Source: Escherichia coli
GTDB lineage: Bacteria > Pseudomonadota > Gammaproteobacteria > Enterobacterales > Enterobacteriaceae
Reading direction: 5' to 3' (one strand)
Assembly: GCF_003334405.1 (NCBI RefSeq)
Contig: NZ_QOWM01000003.1
DNA length: 64,000 nt
In this document: positions 8,475 through 50,429 of the stretch, piece by piece
How positions within the stretch are numbered: the stretch's first letter is position 1
Layout: each line of letters begins with the position of its first letter
Program-made: the position numbers and the translations under genes
Notes under the pieces: model-generated
The model's database searches: none
What the model saw: the letters and a program-made list of their open reading frames with translations, nothing else
What the model was told of the DNA's origin: nothing

Positions 8475-10781
8475 ATGTTTAAGGCCAGGAATTGCGGCTG
8501 GATACGTTTACTGCCCCTGTTTATGCTGAGTCTACCAGTACAGGCGGAACTTCGATGTGTTGCAAATGCAGTTGATATTGAATCATTTTTTTCTGCGGCT
8601 ACCGCTGAAGATAAACAACAAGTTGAACAAGCTATCAACAGTAGCGTGAATCTTGTCCCCTTCGGTTTATCTGCATCGAACTGGAAAGTGCATCGTGGCG
8701 ATTTAGTGGTAGAAGGTAATATAGAGAGTAATCAAAAATTGATTGTTCTTGGGAATTTGACAGTCAAAGGTAATATTTCCACTTTCTCTCTTTCTAATCC
8801 ATGGGTTATTCTCGGTAACGTGACGGCAACGAATATAGTTGCGGATTCACCACTGTTAATTACCGGTTCGATAAATGCAAGTGGACTGGTATTTATCGAC
8901 TCATATTACGATAATCCGTCTACGATTAAGGGGAGTATTAATGCGCGTGGGATATTTATCAATGACATAATTGCACCTGTTGTTGCGTCTTCGACAAATA
9001 GTGAATTCATGGTCCGTGCGAGTGACAAACATGACACTGAAAATGTCAAAAAAGCGCTGATGATAATAAATCCTGATGCATATTATTGGGGGCTAATTAA
9101 TGATGAAGATGCTCTGAAAGAAATTTTTAAGCGAAGCAATATTCGCATGGCAGGGAATGTCTGTAATCAGATGAAAAAAGAAGCGCTGTTTCGCCCTAAG
9201 CCTTCTCCTGAGTTAGTGCAAGAATTGCAAATGCTGGATGAAGGCAAAGTTGCTGCATTTGAAGGACGAGACATTGCGACATTTGATCTTGCCGTAATGC
9301 GAACTCTCCCAAGGCTTAAAGGAATTTCAGCTAACCTACGCAAACAACTTATTAATAGCAATGATGAACAAACGATTGAAAGTATGGCGAGATATATGCC
9401 TGACAATGAGATTCTGGAGTTGACCGATCAGCAATTGGGTTACCAGCCTGTTGTTCTGGGGTTGCTCGACCGTGAACCGCTCTCTGTCGAAATAATGACG
9501 CGAATGAGTCGTCTACCTGATGGTGTCGGTCCGTTGAATCTTGCGCTACGTGAAAATCTCCCTCTGGATATCGTCATGACTCTGGCGAAAAGAGATTGGG
9601 ATATGATCATTCAGGAGCTTTATAAAGATGCGTGGTTATTGCCTGAATCCATTATTGATGGCTATATCCGCAGTGATGATTCCTCTATTCGTCAGGTCGG
9701 TGCTGGAGGACAACTCACCTACAATCAGGCAATGCAGTTGGCGAACGATTCATCAAACAATGTTGTCACAAGCTTAGCGTTCAAGCTGGCAGAGATGAAA
9801 CACCATGGTCAATTGTTGCGGATGACGCCACAAGAGAGTGACAAAGTTGCAGGCTATTTATACCAAAAATTCGAGAATGACGATGATCTAATACGTGTGT
9901 TATTTTTAGCATTGCCAGATAACTTACAGTTTAATTTTGTTAAAAGGATGGAGAAAAAATCCCCGGCCTACTTTTGCTGTCGGGATATGCAGGTAATTCA
10001 CTCTGACGCTGCTTTACAACGGTTATTGACACGTTTCAACGATCCTGAAGGGTGGAGTAATCTGGCGAAAAATCAGTATCTGAGCACGTCGATGAAACAA
10101 AAAATTTGGCAACGTGCTTTATCGCATCGGAAAAATAATCCGAAAGCAGATTCAGATGCATATGAAACCAGCGCTGATATGATTTTGTCTGAGCTGATTA
10201 GCCACGGCGAAGTTGATGACCAGATGCTATTAAATGCCACCGCCCTGATACGTTCGGACGACTGGGACTTTTTAGAGAGTGCATTAATTAGTTGGGATAA
10301 TTTACCCGCTGTTGTTCTCAAGGAATTACAGCAAAACACGCCACGCAATGATATTTGGGCGAAGTTTTTTCTGAGGCAGGAAAACAGTTCCCGTGCGCAG
10401 GTTGACGAAGCGTTACGTGTTTATTATGCACTAGACCCCGATGCGTTAGCACAACTGGATGTACTGGCAAAACAACCGGATCGTATATGGTGGAGTACAC
10501 TGGCGAAAAGCAATCTCACATTTTTCAAGTTCGGCGCACTTAACAACCGCCACACACCGCCTGCAGTACTGGCGGCAGAAATTGATCCCGAGTGGTGGAT
10601 TGTGGCGATGAATAATCCCCGTTTTCCAGTTGATGTATTAAAGGCGAGGCTGAAACGTGATCCTTTGCTGGCGTTAGAGCTTGTTAACCCTGAACTGGAT
10701 TTAGTCCGCCAGCTGGCGCTTAACGGTAAGACGCGCGCAATACGGGAACAAGCGATGAGAAAACTTGATGAGTTGTATTGA
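8475..10781 (+). CDS. ydbD: Large secreted protein of unknown function (N-terminal signal, beta-helix-like repeat region, alpha-helical C-terminal part)
   Basis: ORF track (GTG at 8469, ATG at 8475); signal-like N-terminus LLPLFMLSLPVQA; repeated motifs of the form GN-hydrophobic-x-hydrophobic. Confidence 0.8.
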   Translation: MFKARNCGWIRLLPLFMLSLPVQAELRCVANAVDIESFFSAATAEDKQQVEQAINSSVNLVPFGLSASNWKVHRGDLVVEGNIESNQKLIVLGNLTVKGNISTFSLSNPWVILGNVTATNIVADSPLLITGSINASGLVFIDSYYDNPSTIKGSINARGIFINDIIAPVVASSTNSEFMVRASDKHDTENVKKALMIINPDAYYWGLINDEDALKEIFKRSNIRMAGNVCNQMKKEALFRPKPSPELVQELQMLDEGKVAAFEGRDIATFDLAVMRTLPRLKGISANLRKQLINSNDEQTIESMARYMPDNEILELTDQQLGYQPVVLGLLDREPLSVEIMTRMSRLPDGVGPLNLALRENLPLDIVMTLAKRDWDMIIQELYKDAWLLPESIIDGYIRSDDSSIRQVGAGGQLTYNQAMQLANDSSNNVVTSLAFKLAEMKHHGQLLRMTPQESDKVAGYLYQKFENDDDLIRVLFLALPDNLQFNFVKRMEKKSPAYFCCRDMQVIHSDAALQRLLTRFNDPEGWSNLAKNQYLSTSMKQKIWQRALSHRKNNPKADSDAYETSADMILSELISHGEVDDQMLLNATALIRSDDWDFLESALISWDNLPAVVLKELQQNTPRNDIWAKFFLRQENSSRAQVDEALRVYYALDPDALAQLDVLAKQPDRIWWSTLAKSNLTFFKFGALNNRHTPPAVLAAEIDPEWWIVAMNNPRFPVDVLKARLKRDPLLALELVNPELDLVRQLALNGKTRAIREQAMRKLDELY

Positions 10782-10951
10782 TCCACAACGTAATGTTTTT
10801 TAACTATCTGATTAATTGGGGATAATCATTCCTGACAGTGAGTCCCCAATACCTTGATATATTCTGAATTTTTAATGAAACGGCGTGTTGCGATATCTCC
10901 GTCAGGGGAATTGATGCACCATAGCGCAAACCGAATTATCAAGGATTGATA

Positions 10952-11557
10952 ATGACGCTCTACCAGATAAAACCGCTCTTTCAGTCGCTGTTAAGGCCGA
11001 CGATGTTTTGGCTTTATAAGCACCACGTTACAGCGAATCACATCACTCTTGCTGCACTGGCGCTTTCTCTTCTTACCGGATTGCTGTTGATGTTGGCGGC
11101 ACAACCCATCCTCTTTTTGCTATTGCCCATCGTGCTTTTTATCCGTATGGCGCTCAATGCGCTGGATGGCATGTTGGCGCGTGAGTGCAACCAGCAAACA
11201 CGTCTGGGGGCGATTTTGAATGAGACTGGCGATGTTATTTCCGAAATTGCGCTCTATTTACCATTTTTATTTTTACCGGAAAGTAACGCATCACTCGTGA
11301 TACTCATGTTATTTTGCACCATATTGACCGAGTTTTGCGGTTTACTCGCGCAGACGATTAACGGTGTTCGCAGTTATGCCGGTCCATTTGGCAAAAGCGA
11401 TCGCGCGTTAATATTTGGTCTGTGGGGTCTGGCCGTTGCCATTTATCCACAGTGGATGCAGTGGAATAATCTTTTATGGAGCATTGCTTCAATTCTGCTT
11501 CTCTGGACTGCGATTAATCGTTGTCGGAGTGTGCTTCTTATGAGCGCTGAAATATAA
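10952..11557 (+). CDS. ynbA: CDP-alcohol phosphatidyltransferase family membrane protein
   Basis: ATG at 10952 preceded by aagga; multi-pass hydrophobic protein; stop overlaps ynbB start (TAATG). Confidence 0.8.
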   Translation: MTLYQIKPLFQSLLRPTMFWLYKHHVTANHITLAALALSLLTGLLLMLAAQPILFLLLPIVLFIRMALNALDGMLARECNQQTRLGAILNETGDVISEIALYLPFLFLPESNASLVILMLFCTILTEFCGLLAQTINGVRSYAGPFGKSDRALIFGLWGLAVAIYPQWMQWNNLLWSIASILLLWTAINRCRSVLLMSAEI

Positions 11558-12453
11558 TGCTGGAAAAATCTCTGGCAACACTTTTCGCGTTGTTAATTTT
11601 AGCAACGCTGATAAACCGTTTTCTGCTATGGCGGTTACCGGAGAGAAAAGGGGGTGAGGTTACATTACGTATTCGTACCTGGTGGGGCATCGTCATTTGT
11701 TTTTCAATGGTGATTTCAGGTCCACGCTGGATGACGTTGACGTTTTTTGCGCTGATAAGTTTTCTGGCATTGAAAGAATATTGTACGCTTATATCTGTAC
11801 ATTTTCCGCGTTGGTTATATTGGGGTATTCCTCTTAACTATTTGCTTATCGGTTTTAATTGCTTTGAGCTGTTTCTGTTATTTATACCTTTGGCTGGGTT
11901 TCTGATATTAGCCACCGGGCAAGTTTTAGTGGGTGACCCCTCTGGTTTTCTGCATACCGTGAGCGCCATTTTTTGGGGCTGGATAATGACCGTTTTCGCC
12001 TTGAGTCATGCCGCCTGGTTATTAATGTTGCCAACCACAAATATCCAGGGCGGGGCGTTACTGGTGTTATTTCTTTTGGCATTAACCGAGTCAAACGATA
12101 TTGCACAGTATTTATGGGGAAAATCCTGCGGCAGAAGAAAAGTGGTCCCTAAAGTCAGCCCGGGAAAAACATTGGAAGGTCTGATGGGCGGCGTCATCAC
12201 CATCATGATTGCGTCACTGATTATCGGACCGTTACTGACACCGCTAAATACATTACAGGCATTATTAGCGGGTTTGTTAATTGGTATTAGTGGTTTTTGC
12301 GGCGATGTCGTGATGTCAGCCATCAAACGAGATATTGGTGTTAAAGATAGCGGAAAACTATTGCCAGGACATGGCGGACTCCTTGACAGGATTGACTCAT
12401 TAATTTTCACCGCTCCGGTATTTTTTTATTTTATACGCTACTGCTGTTACTGA
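11557..12453 (+). CDS. ynbB: CdsA-like CTP:phosphatidate cytidylyltransferase paralogue
   Basis: 298 aa membrane ORF; C-terminal region resembles the CdsA signature region; translationally coupled to ynbA. Confidence 0.85.
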   Translation: MLEKSLATLFALLILATLINRFLLWRLPERKGGEVTLRIRTWWGIVICFSMVISGPRWMTLTFFALISFLALKEYCTLISVHFPRWLYWGIPLNYLLIGFNCFELFLLFIPLAGFLILATGQVLVGDPSGFLHTVSAIFWGWIMTVFALSHAAWLLMLPTTNIQGGALLVLFLLALTESNDIAQYLWGKSCGRRKVVPKVSPGKTLEGLMGGVITIMIASLIIGPLLTPLNTLQALLAGLLIGISGFCGDVVMSAIKRDIGVKDSGKLLPGHGGLLDRIDSLIFTAPVFFYFIRYCCY

Positions 12454-12468
12454 AGGAAAATAGAGAAA

Positions 12469-15532
<3,064 letters not shown>

Positions 15533-15541
15533 GTGGATTGA

Positions 15542-15571
15542 GATGTGGACTGAATATCTACAGTCCACATC
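15542..15571. terminator. Perfect 11-bp-stem hairpin between convergent ynbD and azoR (no clear U-tract)
   Basis: gatgtggactg-aatatcta-cagtccacatc. Confidence 0.35.
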
Positions 15572-15585
15572 AAGACCGTGTCCGG

Positions 15586-16200
<615 letters not shown>

Positions 16201-16391
16201 TTATAGATGTTTGAATGGGCGATGCCCCGTTGCTTGTTGACACTTTATTCACAATCCTGCCACAGAGATAGCGCAATAAATCGAAGCCTATGTTCGAATT
16301 TATTGAACAACGCATAGAAAGCCGCGATGTGGTACTCTATATCTATCATTTAAAAGAAAATTAATCAGGCAGACTACTGCCCACTAACGTT

Positions 16392-19300
16392 ATGACAGAA
16401 CAACAAAAATTGACCTTTACGGCCTTGCAGCAGCGGCTGGATTCGCTGATGCTGCGTGACAGACTGCGTTTTTCTCGCCGTCTGCACGGCGTGAAGAAGG
16501 TTAAAAATCCTGATGCACAACAGGCCATTTTCCAGGAGATGGCGAAAGAGATTGACCAGGCGGCAGGGAAAGTCCTGCTGCGTGAAGCGGCACGACCGGA
16601 AATTACTTATCCTGACAATTTACCGGTTAGTCAGAAAAAACAGGACATTCTCGAAGCGATTCGTGATCACCAGGTGGTGATCGTCGCCGGGGAAACGGGT
16701 TCTGGTAAAACGACTCAGTTACCGAAAATCTGTATGGAGCTGGGGCGCGGGATTAAAGGACTGATCGGCCATACCCAGCCGCGTCGTCTGGCGGCAAGAA
16801 CAGTGGCGAACCGTATTGCGGAAGAGCTGAAAACGGAGCCGGGCGGTTGCATCGGTTACAAAGTGCGTTTCAGCGATCACGTAAGTGATAACACGATGGT
16901 CAAGCTGATGACCGACGGTATCCTGCTGGCGGAGATCCAGCAAGACCGCCTGCTGATGCAGTACGACACTATCATTATTGACGAAGCGCACGAACGCAGC
17001 CTGAATATCGATTTTTTGCTCGGCTATTTGAAAGAGTTGCTGCCGCGGCGTCCTGACCTAAAAATCATTATCACTTCCGCGACTATCGACCCGGAACGCT
17101 TTTCGCGCCACTTTAATAATGCGCCGATTATTGAAGTCTCCGGTCGGACCTATCCGGTGGAAGTGCGCTATCGCCCGATTGTTGAAGAAGCCGATGACAC
17201 CGAGCGCGATCAGTTGCAGGCGATTTTTGACGCCGTAGACGAACTGAGTCAGGAAAGCCATGGCGACATTCTGATCTTTATGAGCGGCGAGCGGGAAATC
17301 CGCGATACCGCCGATGCGCTGAACAAGCTGAACTTACGCCATACCGAAATCTTGCCGCTTTATGCGCGGCTTTCGAACAGCGAACAAAATAGGGTATTCC
17401 AGTCGCACAGCGGACGGCGCATTGTGCTGGCGACCAACGTCGCGGAAACGTCGCTGACCGTACCGGGGATTAAATACGTTATCGACCCCGGTACAGCGCG
17501 TATCAGCCGCTACAGCTATCGCACCAAAGTGCAGCGTTTGCCGATTGAGCCGATTTCCCAGGCGTCTGCCAATCAGCGTAAAGGCCGCTGTGGTCGTGTG
17601 TCCGAAGGGATCTGTATTCGTCTCTATTCCGAAGACGATTTCCTCTCGCGCCCGGAGTTTACCGATCCGGAGATTCTGCGTACCAACCTGGCCTCGGTTA
17701 TTTTGCAGATGACCGCGCTGGGGCTGGGCGATATCGCTGCGTTCCCGTTTGTCGAAGCACCGGATAAACGCAATATCCAGGATGGCGTGCGTCTGCTCGA
17801 AGAGCTGGGCGCGATCACCACTGATGAACAGGCCAGCGCCTATAAACTGACGCCGCTCGGTCGCCAGCTCTCGCAGTTGCCTGTCGACCCACGTCTGGCG
17901 CGTATGGTGCTGGAAGCGCAAAAACATGGCTGCGTGCGTGAGGCGATGATTATCACGTCCGCGCTCTCCATTCAGGATCCGCGCGAACGTCCGATGGACA
18001 AACAGCAGGCATCGGACGAAAAACATCGTCGCTTCCACGACAAAGAGTCTGACTTTCTCGCGTTTGTGAATCTGTGGAATTATCTTGGCGAGCAGCAAAA
18101 GGCGCTTTCTTCCAACGCCTTCCATCGCCTGTGTCGTACCGATTATCTCAACTATCTGCGCGTGCGCGAATGGCAGGATATCTACACCCAGTTGCGTCAG
18201 GTGGTGAAAGAACTTGGCATTCCGGTTAACAGCGAACCGGCGGAGTATCGCGAAATTCACATTGCGTTGCTGACCGGTTTACTTTCCCATATCGGCATGA
18301 AAGATGCCGATAAACAAGAATATACCGGCGCACGTAACGCGCGTTTCTCCATCTTCCCCGGTTCTGGTTTATTCAAAAAACCGCCTAAATGGGTAATGGT
18401 GGCGGAACTGGTAGAAACCAGCCGCCTGTGGGGGCGCATTGCTGCGCGTATCGACCCGGAATGGGTGGAGCCAGTTGCTCAGCATTTGATTAAACGCACC
18501 TACAGCGAACCGCACTGGGAACGGGCGCAGGGCGCGGTGATGGCAACGGAAAAAGTCACTGTTTATGGTTTGCCGATTGTTGCCGCGCGCAAGGTCAACT
18601 ACAGCCAGATCGATCCGGCGTTATGTCGTGAACTCTTTATTCGCCACGCGCTGGTGGAAGGTGACTGGCAGACGCGTCACGCATTCTTCCGTGAAAACCT
18701 GAAACTACGGGCGGAAGTAGAAGAGCTGGAACACAAATCACGTCGCCGCGATATTCTGGTTGATGACGAAACGTTGTTTGAGTTCTACGACCAGCGCATC
18801 AGCCACGATGTAATCTCCGCTCGCCACTTCGACAGCTGGTGGAAAAAAGTCAGCCGCGAAACGCCTGATTTGCTCAACTTTGAAAAAAGCATGTTGATCA
18901 AAGAGGGCGCAGAAAAAATCAGCAAGCTGGATTACCCGAACTTCTGGCATCAGGGCAATCTCAAGCTGCGTTTGAGCTATCAGTTTGAGCCCGGCGCGGA
19001 TGCTGACGGTGTGACCGTACATATTCCGCTGCCGTTACTTAACCAGGTTGAGGAAAGCGGGTTTGAATGGCAGATCCCCGGTCTGCGCCGCGAACTGGTG
19101 ATTGCTCTGATTAAATCGTTGCCGAAACCGGTACGCCGTAATTTTGTACCCGCGCCAAACTATGCCGAAGCGTTTTTAGGCCGCGTCAAACCGCTGGAGT
19201 TACCGTTGCTCGACAGCCTTGAGCGCGAGTTACGGCGGATGACCGGCGTTACCGTTGACCGCGAAGACTGGCACTGGGATCAGGTGCCCGATCACCTGAA

Positions 19301-20294
19301 AATTACCTTCCGCGTGGTGGATGACAAAAACAAGAAGCTAAAAGAAGGGCGCTCGCTACAAGATCTGAAAGATGCGCTGAAAGGCAAAGTGCAGGAAACG
19401 CTATCTGCGGTGGCGGATGACGGTATCGAGCAGAGCGGCTTACATATCTGGAGTTTTGGTCAGCTGCCGGAAAGCTACGAACAGAAGCGTGGCAACTACA
19501 AAGTGAAGGCGTGGCCGGCGCTGGTGGATGAGCGCGACAGTGTGGCGATCAAACTGTTTGATAACCCGCTGGAGCAAAAGCAGGCAATGTGGAACGGTCT
19601 TCGCCGTCTACTGCTGCTGAATATTCCATCGCCAATCAAATATTTACATGAAAAGTTACCGAACAAAGCCAAGCTGGGACTGTACTTTAACCCGTATGGC
19701 AAAGTGCTGGAGCTGATCGACGACTGTATCTCCTGCGGTGTGGATAAATTGATCGACGCCAATGGTGGCCCGGTCTGGACGGAAGAAGGCTTTGCTGCGC
19801 TGCATGAAAAAGTGCGTGCCGAACTGAACGACACGGTGGTGGATATTGCGAAGCAGGTCGAGCAAATCCTTACGGCAGTGTTCAATATCAACAAACGTCT
19901 GAAAGGGCGGGTGGATATGACCATGGCGCTGGGGCTTTCTGACATTAAAGCGCAGATGGGCGGGTTGGTATATCGCGGTTTTGTCACTGGTAACGGCTTC
20001 AAACGGCTGGGCGACACGCTGCGATATTTGCAGGCGATTGAAAAACGGCTGGAAAAACTGGCGGTTGATCCACATCGCGACCGTGCGCAGATGCTGAAAG
20101 TCGAAAACGTCCAGCAGGCGTGGCAGCAATGGATCAACAAACTGCCGCCCGCACGTCGTGAGGATGAAGACGTGAAAGAGATCCGTTGGATGATAGAAGA
20201 GTTGCGCGTTAGTTACTTCGCTCAACAACTTGGTACGCCTTATCCGATTTCAGATAAGCGTATTTTGCAGGCGATGGAGCAGATTAGCGGTTAA
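16392..20294 (+). CDS. hrpA: ATP-dependent DEAH-box RNA helicase HrpA
   Basis: 1300 aa ORF; Walker A GETGSGKT, DEAH box IIIDEAHERS. Confidence 0.95.
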   Translation: MTEQQKLTFTALQQRLDSLMLRDRLRFSRRLHGVKKVKNPDAQQAIFQEMAKEIDQAAGKVLLREAARPEITYPDNLPVSQKKQDILEAIRDHQVVIVAGETGSGKTTQLPKICMELGRGIKGLIGHTQPRRLAARTVANRIAEELKTEPGGCIGYKVRFSDHVSDNTMVKLMTDGILLAEIQQDRLLMQYDTIIIDEAHERSLNIDFLLGYLKELLPRRPDLKIIITSATIDPERFSRHFNNAPIIEVSGRTYPVEVRYRPIVEEADDTERDQLQAIFDAVDELSQESHGDILIFMSGEREIRDTADALNKLNLRHTEILPLYARLSNSEQNRVFQSHSGRRIVLATNVAETSLTVPGIKYVIDPGTARISRYSYRTKVQRLPIEPISQASANQRKGRCGRVSEGICIRLYSEDDFLSRPEFTDPEILRTNLASVILQMTALGLGDIAAFPFVEAPDKRNIQDGVRLLEELGAITTDEQASAYKLTPLGRQLSQLPVDPRLARMVLEAQKHGCVREAMIITSALSIQDPRERPMDKQQASDEKHRRFHDKESDFLAFVNLWNYLGEQQKALSSNAFHRLCRTDYLNYLRVREWQDIYTQLRQVVKELGIPVNSEPAEYREIHIALLTGLLSHIGMKDADKQEYTGARNARFSIFPGSGLFKKPPKWVMVAELVETSRLWGRIAARIDPEWVEPVAQHLIKRTYSEPHWERAQGAVMATEKVTVYGLPIVAARKVNYSQIDPALCRELFIRHALVEGDWQTRHAFFRENLKLRAEVEELEHKSRRRDILVDDETLFEFYDQRISHDVISARHFDSWWKKVSRETPDLLNFEKSMLIKEGAEKISKLDYPNFWHQGNLKLRLSYQFEPGADADGVTVHIPLPLLNQVEESGFEWQIPGLRRELVIALIKSLPKPVRRNFVPAPNYAEAFLGRVKPLELPLLDSLERELRRMTGVTVDREDWHWDQVPDHLKITFRVVDDKNKKLKEGRSLQDLKDALKGKVQETLSAVADDGIEQSGLHIWSFGQLPESYEQKRGNYKVKAWPALVDERDSVAIKLFDNPLEQKQAMWNGLRRLLLLNIPSPIKYLHEKLPNKAKLGLYFNPYGKVLELIDDCISCGVDKLIDANGGPVWTEEGFAALHEKVRAELNDTVVDIAKQVEQILTAVFNINKRLKGRVDMTMALGLSDIKAQMGGLVYRGFVTGNGFKRLGDTLRYLQAIEKRLEKLAVDPHRDRAQMLKVENVQQAWQQWINKLPPARREDEDVKEIRWMIEELRVSYFAQQLGTPYPISDKRILQAMEQISG

Positions 20295-48908: not shown

Positions 48909-50333
48909 ATGCAACATAAGTTACTGATTAACGGAGAACTGGTTAGCGGCGAAGGGGAAAAACAGCCTGTCTATAATCCGGCAACGGGGGACGTTTTACT
49001 GGAAATTGCCGAGGCATCCGCAGAGCAGGTCGATGCTGCTGTGCGCGCGGCAGATGCAGCATTTGCCGAATGGGGGCAAACCACGCCGAAAGTGCGTGCG
49101 GAATGTCTGCTGAAACTGGCTGATGTTATCGAAGAAAATGGTCAGGTTTTTGCCGAACTGGAGTCCCGTAATTGTGGCAAACCGCTGCATAGTGCGTTCA
49201 ATGATGAAATCCCGGCGATTGTCGATGTTTTTCGCTTTTTCGCGGGTGCGGCGCGCTGTCTGAATGGTCTGGCGGCAGGTGAATATCTTGAAGGTCATAC
49301 TTCGATGATCCGTCGCGATCCGTTGGGGGTCGTGGCTTCTATCGCACCGTGGAATTATCCGCTGATGATGGCCGCGTGGAAACTTGCTCCGGCGCTGGCG
49401 GCAGGGAACTGCGTAGTGCTTAAACCATCAGAAATTACCCCGCTGACCGCGTTGAAGTTGGCAGAGCTGGCGAAAGATATCTTCCCGGCAGGCGTGATTA
49501 ACATACTGTTTGGCAGAGGCAAAACGGTGGGTGATCCGCTGACCGGTCATCCCAAAGTGCGGATGGTGTCGCTGACGGGCTCTATCGCCACCGGCGAGCA
49601 CATCATCAGCCATACCGCGTCGTCCATTAAGCGTACTCATATGGAACTTGGTGGCAAAGCGCCAGTGATTGTTTTTGATGATGCGGATATTGAAGCAGTG
49701 GTCGAAGGTGTACGTACATTTGGCTATTACAATGCTGGACAGGATTGTACTGCGGCTTGTCGGATCTACGCGCAAAAAGGCATTTACGATACGCTGGTGG
49801 AAAAACTGGGTGCTGCGGTGGCAACGTTAAAATCTGGTGCGCCAGATGACGAGTCTACGGAGCTTGGACCTTTAAGCTCGCTGGCGCATCTCGAACGCGT
49901 CAGCAAGGCAGTAGAAGAGGCGAAAGCGACAGGGCACATCAAAGTGATCACTGGCGGTGAAAAGCGCAAGGGTAATGGCTATTACTATGCGCCGACGCTG
50001 CTGGCTGGCGCATTACAGGACGATGCCATCGTGCAAAAAGAGGTATTTGGTCCAGTAGTGAGTGTTACGCCCTTCGACAACGAAGAACAGGTGGTGAACT
50101 GGGCGAATGACAGCCAGTACGGACTTGCATCTTCGGTATGGACGAAAGATGTGGGCAGGGCGCATCGCGTCAGCGCACGGCTGCAATATGGTTGTACCTG
50201 GGTCAATACCCATTTCATGCTGGTAAGTGAAATGCCGCACGGTGGGCAGAAACTTTCTGGTTACGGCAAGGATATGTCACTTTATGGGCTGGAGGATTAC
50301 ACCGTCGTCCGCCACGTCATGGTTAAACATTAA
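48909..50333 (+). CDS. patD: Gamma-aminobutyraldehyde dehydrogenase
   Basis: 474 aa aldehyde dehydrogenase; catalytic Cys region [16 protein letters not shown] motif. Confidence 0.9.
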
Positions 50334-50429
50334 GGATAATATTGCAGATCGTAAGAGTATGAGATGATCTTGCGTACTGTCAGAGCACTGATTTCTCTGA
50401 CAGTACGTGCTGCGTGCAAAATCACTACA

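Follow-up and report, generated by a model that had tools for sequence, protein, structure and literature searches.

Rho-terminated mRNAs of Escherichia coli end precisely, just past stable stem-loops (Dar & Sorek 2018, NAR 46:6797, PMC6061677). These stem-loops lack U-tails and upstream A-tracts, are followed by sequence with more C than G, and shield the RNA from PNPase and RNase II (PMC6061677). For this model of 3′-end processing, Adams et al. 2021 (PMC7815308) also cite Wang et al. 2019. Two further kinds of 3′ hairpin bear on the present case: the canonical intrinsic terminator, in which a G+C-rich stem is followed by at least 4 to 5 U within 8 nt, and the bidirectional terminator (Ju et al. 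2019; RNAP-collision model, bioRxiv 10.1101/2022.10.23.513370), in which an A-tract lies upstream of the hairpin and a U-tract downstream. Here we compare these systems with a hairpin between the convergent E. coli genes ynbD and azoR. It is most likely an ordinary element of an already described kind and not something new; on balance, we think it probable that the hairpin protects the 3′ end of an azoR mRNA whose transcription is terminated by Rho, and that it does so in the majority allele of E. coli.

The window, the whole 64-kb stretch of DNA that was analyzed, is E. coli K-12 MG1655 sequence: a comparison of 1,301 nt with NC_000913.3 showed no difference, and window coordinates equal MG1655 coordinates minus 1,466,669. 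On the plus strand, pdxI (7552-8412) is followed by ydbD (8469-10781), by ynbA, ynbB, and ynbC, and then by ynbD, whose TAA stop codon lies at 15530-15532. The azoR gene (15586-16191) runs toward it on the minus strand and ends in a TAA at 15586-15588; hrpA (16392-20294) lies beyond on the plus strand. The names ynbD and azoR are backed by the RefSeq annotation, which contains nothing in the 53-nt intergenic spacer between the two convergent stop codons. The ynbD start differs between two K-12 MG1655 records (L001 and L087), with lengths of 1317 nt in NZ_CP010440.1 and 1293 nt in NC_000913.3, and the longest ynbD open reading frame in the window begins further upstream still, at a GTG at 14141 (463 aa). 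An internal stop interrupts ynbD in E. coli 13E0780 (L002), where the gene carries a pseudogene annotation.

The hairpin occupies 15542-15571 within this spacer and reads GATGTGGACTG-AATATCTA-CAGTCCACATC on the plus strand, a perfect 11-bp stem closing an 8-nt loop. We propose that it acts on the minus strand, as an RNA element at the 3′ end of the azoR transcript, so that the arm at 15542-15552 is the 3′ arm in the azoR sense and the arm at 15561-15571 is the 5′ arm; the loop between them (15553-15560) is polymorphic. The hairpin begins 10 nt beyond the last base of the ynbD stop and is separated from azoR by a 14-nt spacer (15572-15585, minus strand), its end lying 15 nt before the azoR stop. 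A first-pass annotation of the window had described the stem and loop exactly as we find them, and the distances it gave, 10 from the ynbD stop and 15 from the azoR stop, match the open reading frame ends at 15532 and 15586-15588. A 50-aa open reading frame that starts within the hairpin (15543-15695, antisense to azoR) was dropped from consideration, as nothing supports it.

The hairpin is more than a chance feature. Its predicted RNA fold is nearly equal on the two strands, at -17.6 kcal/mol (plus) and -18.1 kcal/mol (minus), with z-scores of -5.4 and -6.4, and the 11-bp stem is still predicted on both strands in an 86-nt context. The first-pass annotation had suggested the fold free energy as a check, and a value of about -18 kcal/mol on either strand, which 0 of 200 shuffles equaled, speaks for the stem. 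Perfect stems of at least 11 bp with loops of 3 to 12 nt number 3 in the 64-kb window, compared with 0.11 expected from first-order Markov shuffles. No further copy of the hairpin arm is found in the window, and a search of 5,426 complete E. coli genomes places the hairpin at a single locus in each of the 4,767 that carry it, the two matches per genome being the two strands of one palindrome. Rfam, searched at permissive thresholds, returned no family for the hairpin and chance-level eukaryotic matches alone. Because it is single copy, has no Rfam family, and lies in an unannotated spacer, we ruled out a dispersed intergenic repeat (REP/BIME, ERIC, box C, and similar).

Other perfect hairpins occur past stop codons in the window. 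The longest (50373-50407) has a 13-bp stem, CGTACTGTCAGAG / CTCTGACAGTACG, and a 9-nt loop and lies 40 nt past the stop of a 474-aa open reading frame (48909-50333). No T-run follows it, and it may belong, like the azoR hairpin, to the class of 3′ stem-loops that lack a U-tract. Nearby, at 1516753 (window position ~50084), the tables of Adams et al. contain a Rho region on the minus strand, "antisense patD." At 1276-1308, a perfect 11-bp stem, ATAAAGCAGAG / CTCTGCTTTAT, with an 11-nt loop lies ~30 nt past the stop of an open reading frame at 655-1245. Downstream of pdxI, a canonical intrinsic terminator at 8422-8447 consists of a perfect 10-bp stem, AAAAGGGAAA/TTTCCCTTTT, and a 6-nt loop, followed by TTTCTTTTTT; its sequence is unrelated both to the azoR hairpin and to the azoR terminator of strains that lack the ynb genes.

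Stable as it is, the azoR hairpin does not look like an intrinsic terminator on either strand. The 8 nt past the stem contain 1 T on the plus strand (AAGACCGT) and 2 T on the minus strand (TCAATCCA), the 8 nt before the stem in the azoR sense contain 1 A (T-score, 1.12), and the immediate flanks, GGATTGA and AAGACCG, are free of A or T runs. Neither the U-rich tail of a canonical terminator nor the paired A- and U-tracts of a bidirectional one are therefore present, and a consensus terminator scan did not flag the hairpin. On a d'Aubenton-Carafa-type terminator score, computed with ViennaRNA energies, the K-12 hairpin scores -38 in the azoR sense and -60 in the ynbD sense, the O157 hairpin -33, and the Escherichia albertii hairpin -47, as against +48 and +59 for canonical azoR terminators. 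The first-pass annotation had noted that no U-tract flanks the stem on either strand and had judged the element to be something other than a classical terminator; the tails and the scores agree with it on both points.

Published data on termination place a Rho-dependent event beside the hairpin. Adams et al. 2021 (eLife, PMC7815308, Supplementary file 2) report a Rho termination region on the minus strand at MG1655 1482190, labeled "antisense ynbD," with a Rho score of 4.93 (p=3.3e-5). Upstream and downstream reads at this position are 43/15 without bicyclomycin and 25/43 with it (PMC7815308). The peak (window position 15521, minus strand) is 21 nt downstream of the stem in the azoR sense, an offset that is imprecise because of the low read counts and the 800-nt windows used; according to the authors, such coordinates approximate processed 3′ ends and not termination sites (PMC7815308). 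The RNA that would be made beyond the hairpin, antisense to the 3′ end of ynbD (15342-15541, minus strand), is C-rich and G-poor and is a candidate Rho-utilization (rut) region. The C/G ratio downstream of the hairpin in the azoR sense is 4.67 over 40 nt, 1.55 over 120 nt (the 92nd percentile of the window), and 1.70 over 200 nt, a skew consistent with a rut site; in the ynbD sense, from 15572 onward, it is about 1.0, with no enrichment of C over G. The earlier reading of the hairpin as an RNA-stability or processing element is strengthened, if indirectly, by the selective conservation of the stem, described below, and by the adjoining Rho region, and it needs the addition of Rho-dependent termination.

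The resemblance to the stem-loops of Dar & Sorek 2018 is thus close. As in that class, the azoR hairpin has the energy and size of an intrinsic terminator (-18.1 kcal/mol, 11 pairs) with neither a U-rich tail nor an upstream A-tract, lies just past the stop codon of a modestly expressed gene, has C in excess of G directly downstream in the azoR sense, and adjoins read-through that is bicyclomycin sensitive in the published data, which are of coarse resolution and low counts. Members of the class have a steady-state 3′ end at the base of the stem; for azoR, there is none in the tables examined. No curated Term-seq peak falls in the ynbD-azoR spacer (Adams et al. Supplementary files 1 and 3, PMC7815308), no 3′ ends for azoR or ynbD appear in SMRT-Cappable-seq (Yan 2018) or in the Dar PLoS Genet supplements, and text searches of the literature for azoR and ynbD gave nothing relevant. 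The missing Term-seq 3′ end at the azoR stem may reflect low expression. Two more features set the azoR hairpin apart from the class: a convergent gene shares the stem, which is perfectly palindromic, and the species has a second, alternative 3′ end for azoR.

On this model, RNA polymerase transcribing azoR on the minus strand would make the stem-loop 14 nt past the stop codon and, because no U-tract follows, would pass it without terminating. The transcript would then extend into untranslated, C-rich and G-poor RNA antisense to the 3′ end of ynbD, where Rho would load and terminate transcription. The heterogeneous ends left behind would be trimmed by the 3′-to-5′ exonucleases PNPase and RNase II until the 11-bp stem blocked them at its base, and the outcome would be a defined and stabilized azoR 3′ end. 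Both the placing of that end exactly at the foot of the stem and the blocking of the exonucleases are inferred. The same stem may also serve the end of the ynbABCD transcript, where it can form because the E. coli stem consists entirely of Watson-Crick pairs.

Variation within E. coli spares the stem. Among twelve alleles from complete RefSeq E. coli genomes, the differences are confined to the flanks and to a deletion of 3 nt from the loop, which is thereby shortened to 5 nt in O157 and many other strains; the stem is the same in all twelve. To this we added a metagenome scan that was anchored on the azoR stop region alone and was therefore unbiased toward intact arms; it recovered 96 loci, 92 of them full-length alleles of the E. 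coli type that fall into 10 spacer haplotypes. Across these 92 loci, variable sites number 3 of 14 in the azoR-proximal spacer and 6 of 9 in the distal flank, with one indel in the loop, against 0 of 22 in the stem (10 of 31 non-stem positions or events varying versus 0 of 22; Fisher p=0.0023). Judged by this pattern, the stem is selectively conserved in E. coli, although its invariance could come in part from palindrome correction at the DNA level instead of selection on RNA. One metagenome locus with a different hairpin (L154) was excluded, as it encodes no azoR, ynbD, or pdxI and represents a chance 21-mer match, and another, with a right arm shortened by deletion (L183), was treated as unreliable because it lies on a 1.4-kb low-coverage contig with a frameshifted azoR. 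A common azoR allele (L091, L092, and ~28 metagenome loci, e.g., L097) ends in the azoR sense in ...GCTGAATAA and not in ...TCTGCATAA, which on the plus strand places TTATTCAGC where TTATGCAGA would stand; because the last codons before the stop are changed, the C-terminal residue of AzoR differs between E. coli lineages.

A 3′ hairpin is a general property of azoR, and its form is not. For this comparison, 80 azoR loci from other species were used. The downstream neighbor of azoR varies between genera, yet a stable hairpin (dG of -11 or lower) lies within about 45 nt of the stop codon in all 81 other azoR loci, which suggests that a 3′ stem-loop is a constant requirement of the gene. An 8-nt tail with at least 4 T follows in 52 of the 81. 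The common form is a G+C-rich stem 7 to 13 nt past the stop, that is, a canonical intrinsic terminator; examples from other genera are CCCTCTCACC-GCCC-GGTGGGAGGG-TTTTT, CCTCCCGC...GCGGGAGG-TTTT, and ACCCTCCTGC...GCAGGAGGGT, and these terminators show compensatory differences between genera. The E. coli hairpin is not among these forms: an 8-mer from the K-12 arm gave scattered chance matches alone near azoR in 80 other species, and a BLAST comparison of the K-12 spacer with azoR loci of other species found nothing meaningful.

Within E. coli itself, azoR ends in two ways. The hairpin is present in 4,767 of the 5,426 complete genomes (88%). A further 647 (12%) lack ydbD-ynbABCD, so that pdxI converges on azoR, and these strains carry a canonical azoR terminator, CCTCCCAC-TTTC-GTGGGAGG-TTTTTT. 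The ydbD-ynbABCD block (window 8413-15585; compare loci L005, L007, L092, and L008) is a presence/absence polymorphism. The canonical terminator, which these strains have in common with other Enterobacteriaceae, and the hairpin occupy the same position, 7 to 20 nt past the stop, with similar energies (-15 to -22 kcal/mol for the former), yet they are unrelated in sequence. The hairpin stem is 43% G+C, compared with 65 to 90% in the canonical stems, its 8-nt tail has 2 T compared with 4 to 8, its score is -38 compared with +48 to +59, and read-through past it is Rho dependent. On the reading that we prefer, the hairpin replaced an ancestral intrinsic terminator in the lineage leading to most E. 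coli and to E. albertii.

E. albertii offers a view of the hairpin separated from the ynb operon. In this species (L008 and two identical metagenome contigs, effectively one lineage), ynbABCD has been lost and ydbD kept; beyond the hairpin lie a decayed remnant of the ynbD 3′ end and then the 3′ end of ydbD. Between K-12 and E. albertii, the ynbD remnant is identical at 71 of 115 positions (62%), with 17 gap columns, and the spacer between the azoR stop and the hairpin at 9 of 14, whereas the hairpin arms are identical at 20 of 22 (about 90%; Fisher p=0.003 against the remnant). The homologous arms in E. albertii are 15 nt apart; because 8 of these 15 nt form additional apical pairs, the helix is longer, with a 15-bp stem and a 7-nt loop. 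Two of its pairs are G·U, as a consequence of which the hairpin is stable in the azoR sense alone (-22.7 kcal/mol, compared with -14.9 kcal/mol on the opposite strand). An allele of the E. albertii type was sought within E. coli, with no match.

Two further comparisons separate the hairpin from ynbD. E. coli strain U1 has lost everything between the pdxI stop and the final ~60 nt of ynbD, and the hairpin is kept beside azoR. No such hairpin follows ynbD in Citrobacter, Klebsiella, and Phytobacter, where a fifth, overlapping gene comes next; this argues that the hairpin is not an ancestral feature of ynbD. The start codon of this fifth gene in Citrobacter, Klebsiella spallanzanii, and Phytobacter is an ATG that overlaps the ynbD stop (ATGGCAACGGAAAGTGA), and its product, encoded between ynbD and azoR, is a hydrophobic protein of ~200 aa (loci L009, L010, L011, L014, L015, L023, L025, L034, L035, and L073, at about 3110-3830). 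E. coli lacks the gene, and the K-12 ynbD-azoR junction would thus be the product of a deletion. Taken together, the retention and strand asymmetry of the hairpin in E. albertii, which has no ynbABCD, and its retention in U1 indicate an azoR-linked element that acts at the RNA level, one that belongs with the azoR mRNA and is not shared evenly between the two genes. The first-pass annotation had set the hairpin between the convergent ynbD and azoR and proposed to measure both mRNAs; the same E. albertii observations refine this by assigning the element to azoR.

This bears directly on the alternative that the hairpin is a noncanonical bidirectional terminator or a collision-positioning hairpin, which we regard as possible but unlikely. 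Here the nascent stem-loop would pause polymerases arriving from both sides, and head-on and trailing collisions or weak intrinsic release would end both transcripts within the 53-nt spacer. Such a role is compatible with Rho-dependent termination of azoR, the two not being mutually exclusive. Like the described bidirectional terminators, the hairpin is symmetric, sits in a short convergent spacer, roughly central between the two stops, and as a perfect Watson-Crick palindrome folds equally in both transcripts. Unlike them, it has no U- or A-tract on either side (scores, -38 and -60), and it is kept, in an azoR-strand-specific form, in E. albertii, which no longer has the convergent partner. 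Expression of the ynb operon is weak, and collisions between ynbD and azoR polymerases should accordingly be rare. The read-through seen on the azoR strand is, moreover, bicyclomycin sensitive, and the tables of Adams et al. contain no Rho region or 3′ end on the ynbD strand at the hairpin (PMC7815308).

The perfection of the palindrome in E. coli also invites an explanation at the level of DNA, which we consider improbable as a full account: a quasi-palindrome with no selected function, left at a rearrangement-prone junction where the fifth ynb gene was lost and ynb indels occurred, and kept perfect by template-switching during replication. The structure of the locus is indeed unstable: E. 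coli has three arrangements of it, and E. albertii has a further one. The azoR terminator of other genera is unrelated. In the metagenome contig OICB01000947.1 (L105), the azoR 3′ flank has changed from TCAATC to AAGATC by three clustered substitutions that complement the proximal spacer GATCTT and extend the palindrome in one step from 11 to 17 perfect bp (-31 kcal/mol). The change is template-switch-like and appears to bear the classic signature of quasi-palindrome mutation. Against an origin without function, however, stand the arms in E. albertii, which are far better conserved than the adjoining, decaying ynbD remnant (p=0.003), and the helix there, which uses G·U pairs that are mismatched as DNA and on the other strand; a helix kept in this way fits selection on RNA and not correction of a DNA palindrome. 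A 3′ hairpin is also present in every azoR ortholog examined, and the Rho region maps at this one.

A composite of these ideas is conceivable, though we hold it to be similarly improbable. E. coli would be dimorphic in its azoR ending, with 88% of genomes relying on Rho plus a protective stem and 12% on the ancestral intrinsic terminator; the palindrome would in addition act as a two-way, U-tract-independent barrier that positions the polymerases on ynbD and azoR, and it would be kept or extended by template-switch mutation, as in the 17-bp palindrome of L105. If true, azoR would provide a tractable natural example of turnover between terminator types, in which RNA and DNA mechanisms both maintain the element.

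Far less probable is a protein-binding palindrome, the site of a dimeric transcription factor or nucleoid-associated protein, which the first-pass annotation had offered as an alternative on the strength of what are two perfect 11-bp inverted arms; it is disfavored because the spacing of the arms is not conserved (8 nt in K-12, 5 nt in O157 and many others, 15 nt in E. albertii) and a consensus scan found 0 promoter-like sites in 14800-16500, and the arms are also imperfect as DNA in E. albertii, while the element lies between convergent stops as a single copy in the genome. A loop that is free to be 8 nt, 5 nt, or longer is what an RNA helix would allow, and it does not fit the operator of a dimeric protein. 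RNase III substrates are typically roughly 20 bp long. An RNase III or RNase E processing site, or the terminator-like end of a small RNA derived from the 3′ UTR, would accommodate a stable stem in this position, but it is just as remote: the 11-bp stem is well below the typical RNase III length, there is no Rfam match and no U-tail for Hfq binding, the 14 nt of azoR 3′ UTR before the stem leave no room for a seed region, and Adams et al. report no small RNA or 3′ end at the hairpin (PMC7815308).

The reading that we prefer, a protective 3′ stem-loop on a Rho-terminated azoR mRNA, adds one unannotated example to the several hundred U-tract-less 3′ stem-loops of Rho-terminated E. coli mRNAs. 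It also carries a warning for annotators, as hairpins between convergent genes may be neither shared nor bidirectional. Beyond this, azoR lends itself to a clean natural comparison of two endings, the intrinsic terminator of other Enterobacteriaceae and of ~12% of E. coli and the Rho-associated hairpin that E. albertii shares with ~88% of E. coli. Swaps of the two azoR endings could measure the cost and benefit of each mode of termination, in terms of mRNA stability, read-through into the neighboring gene, and expression noise.
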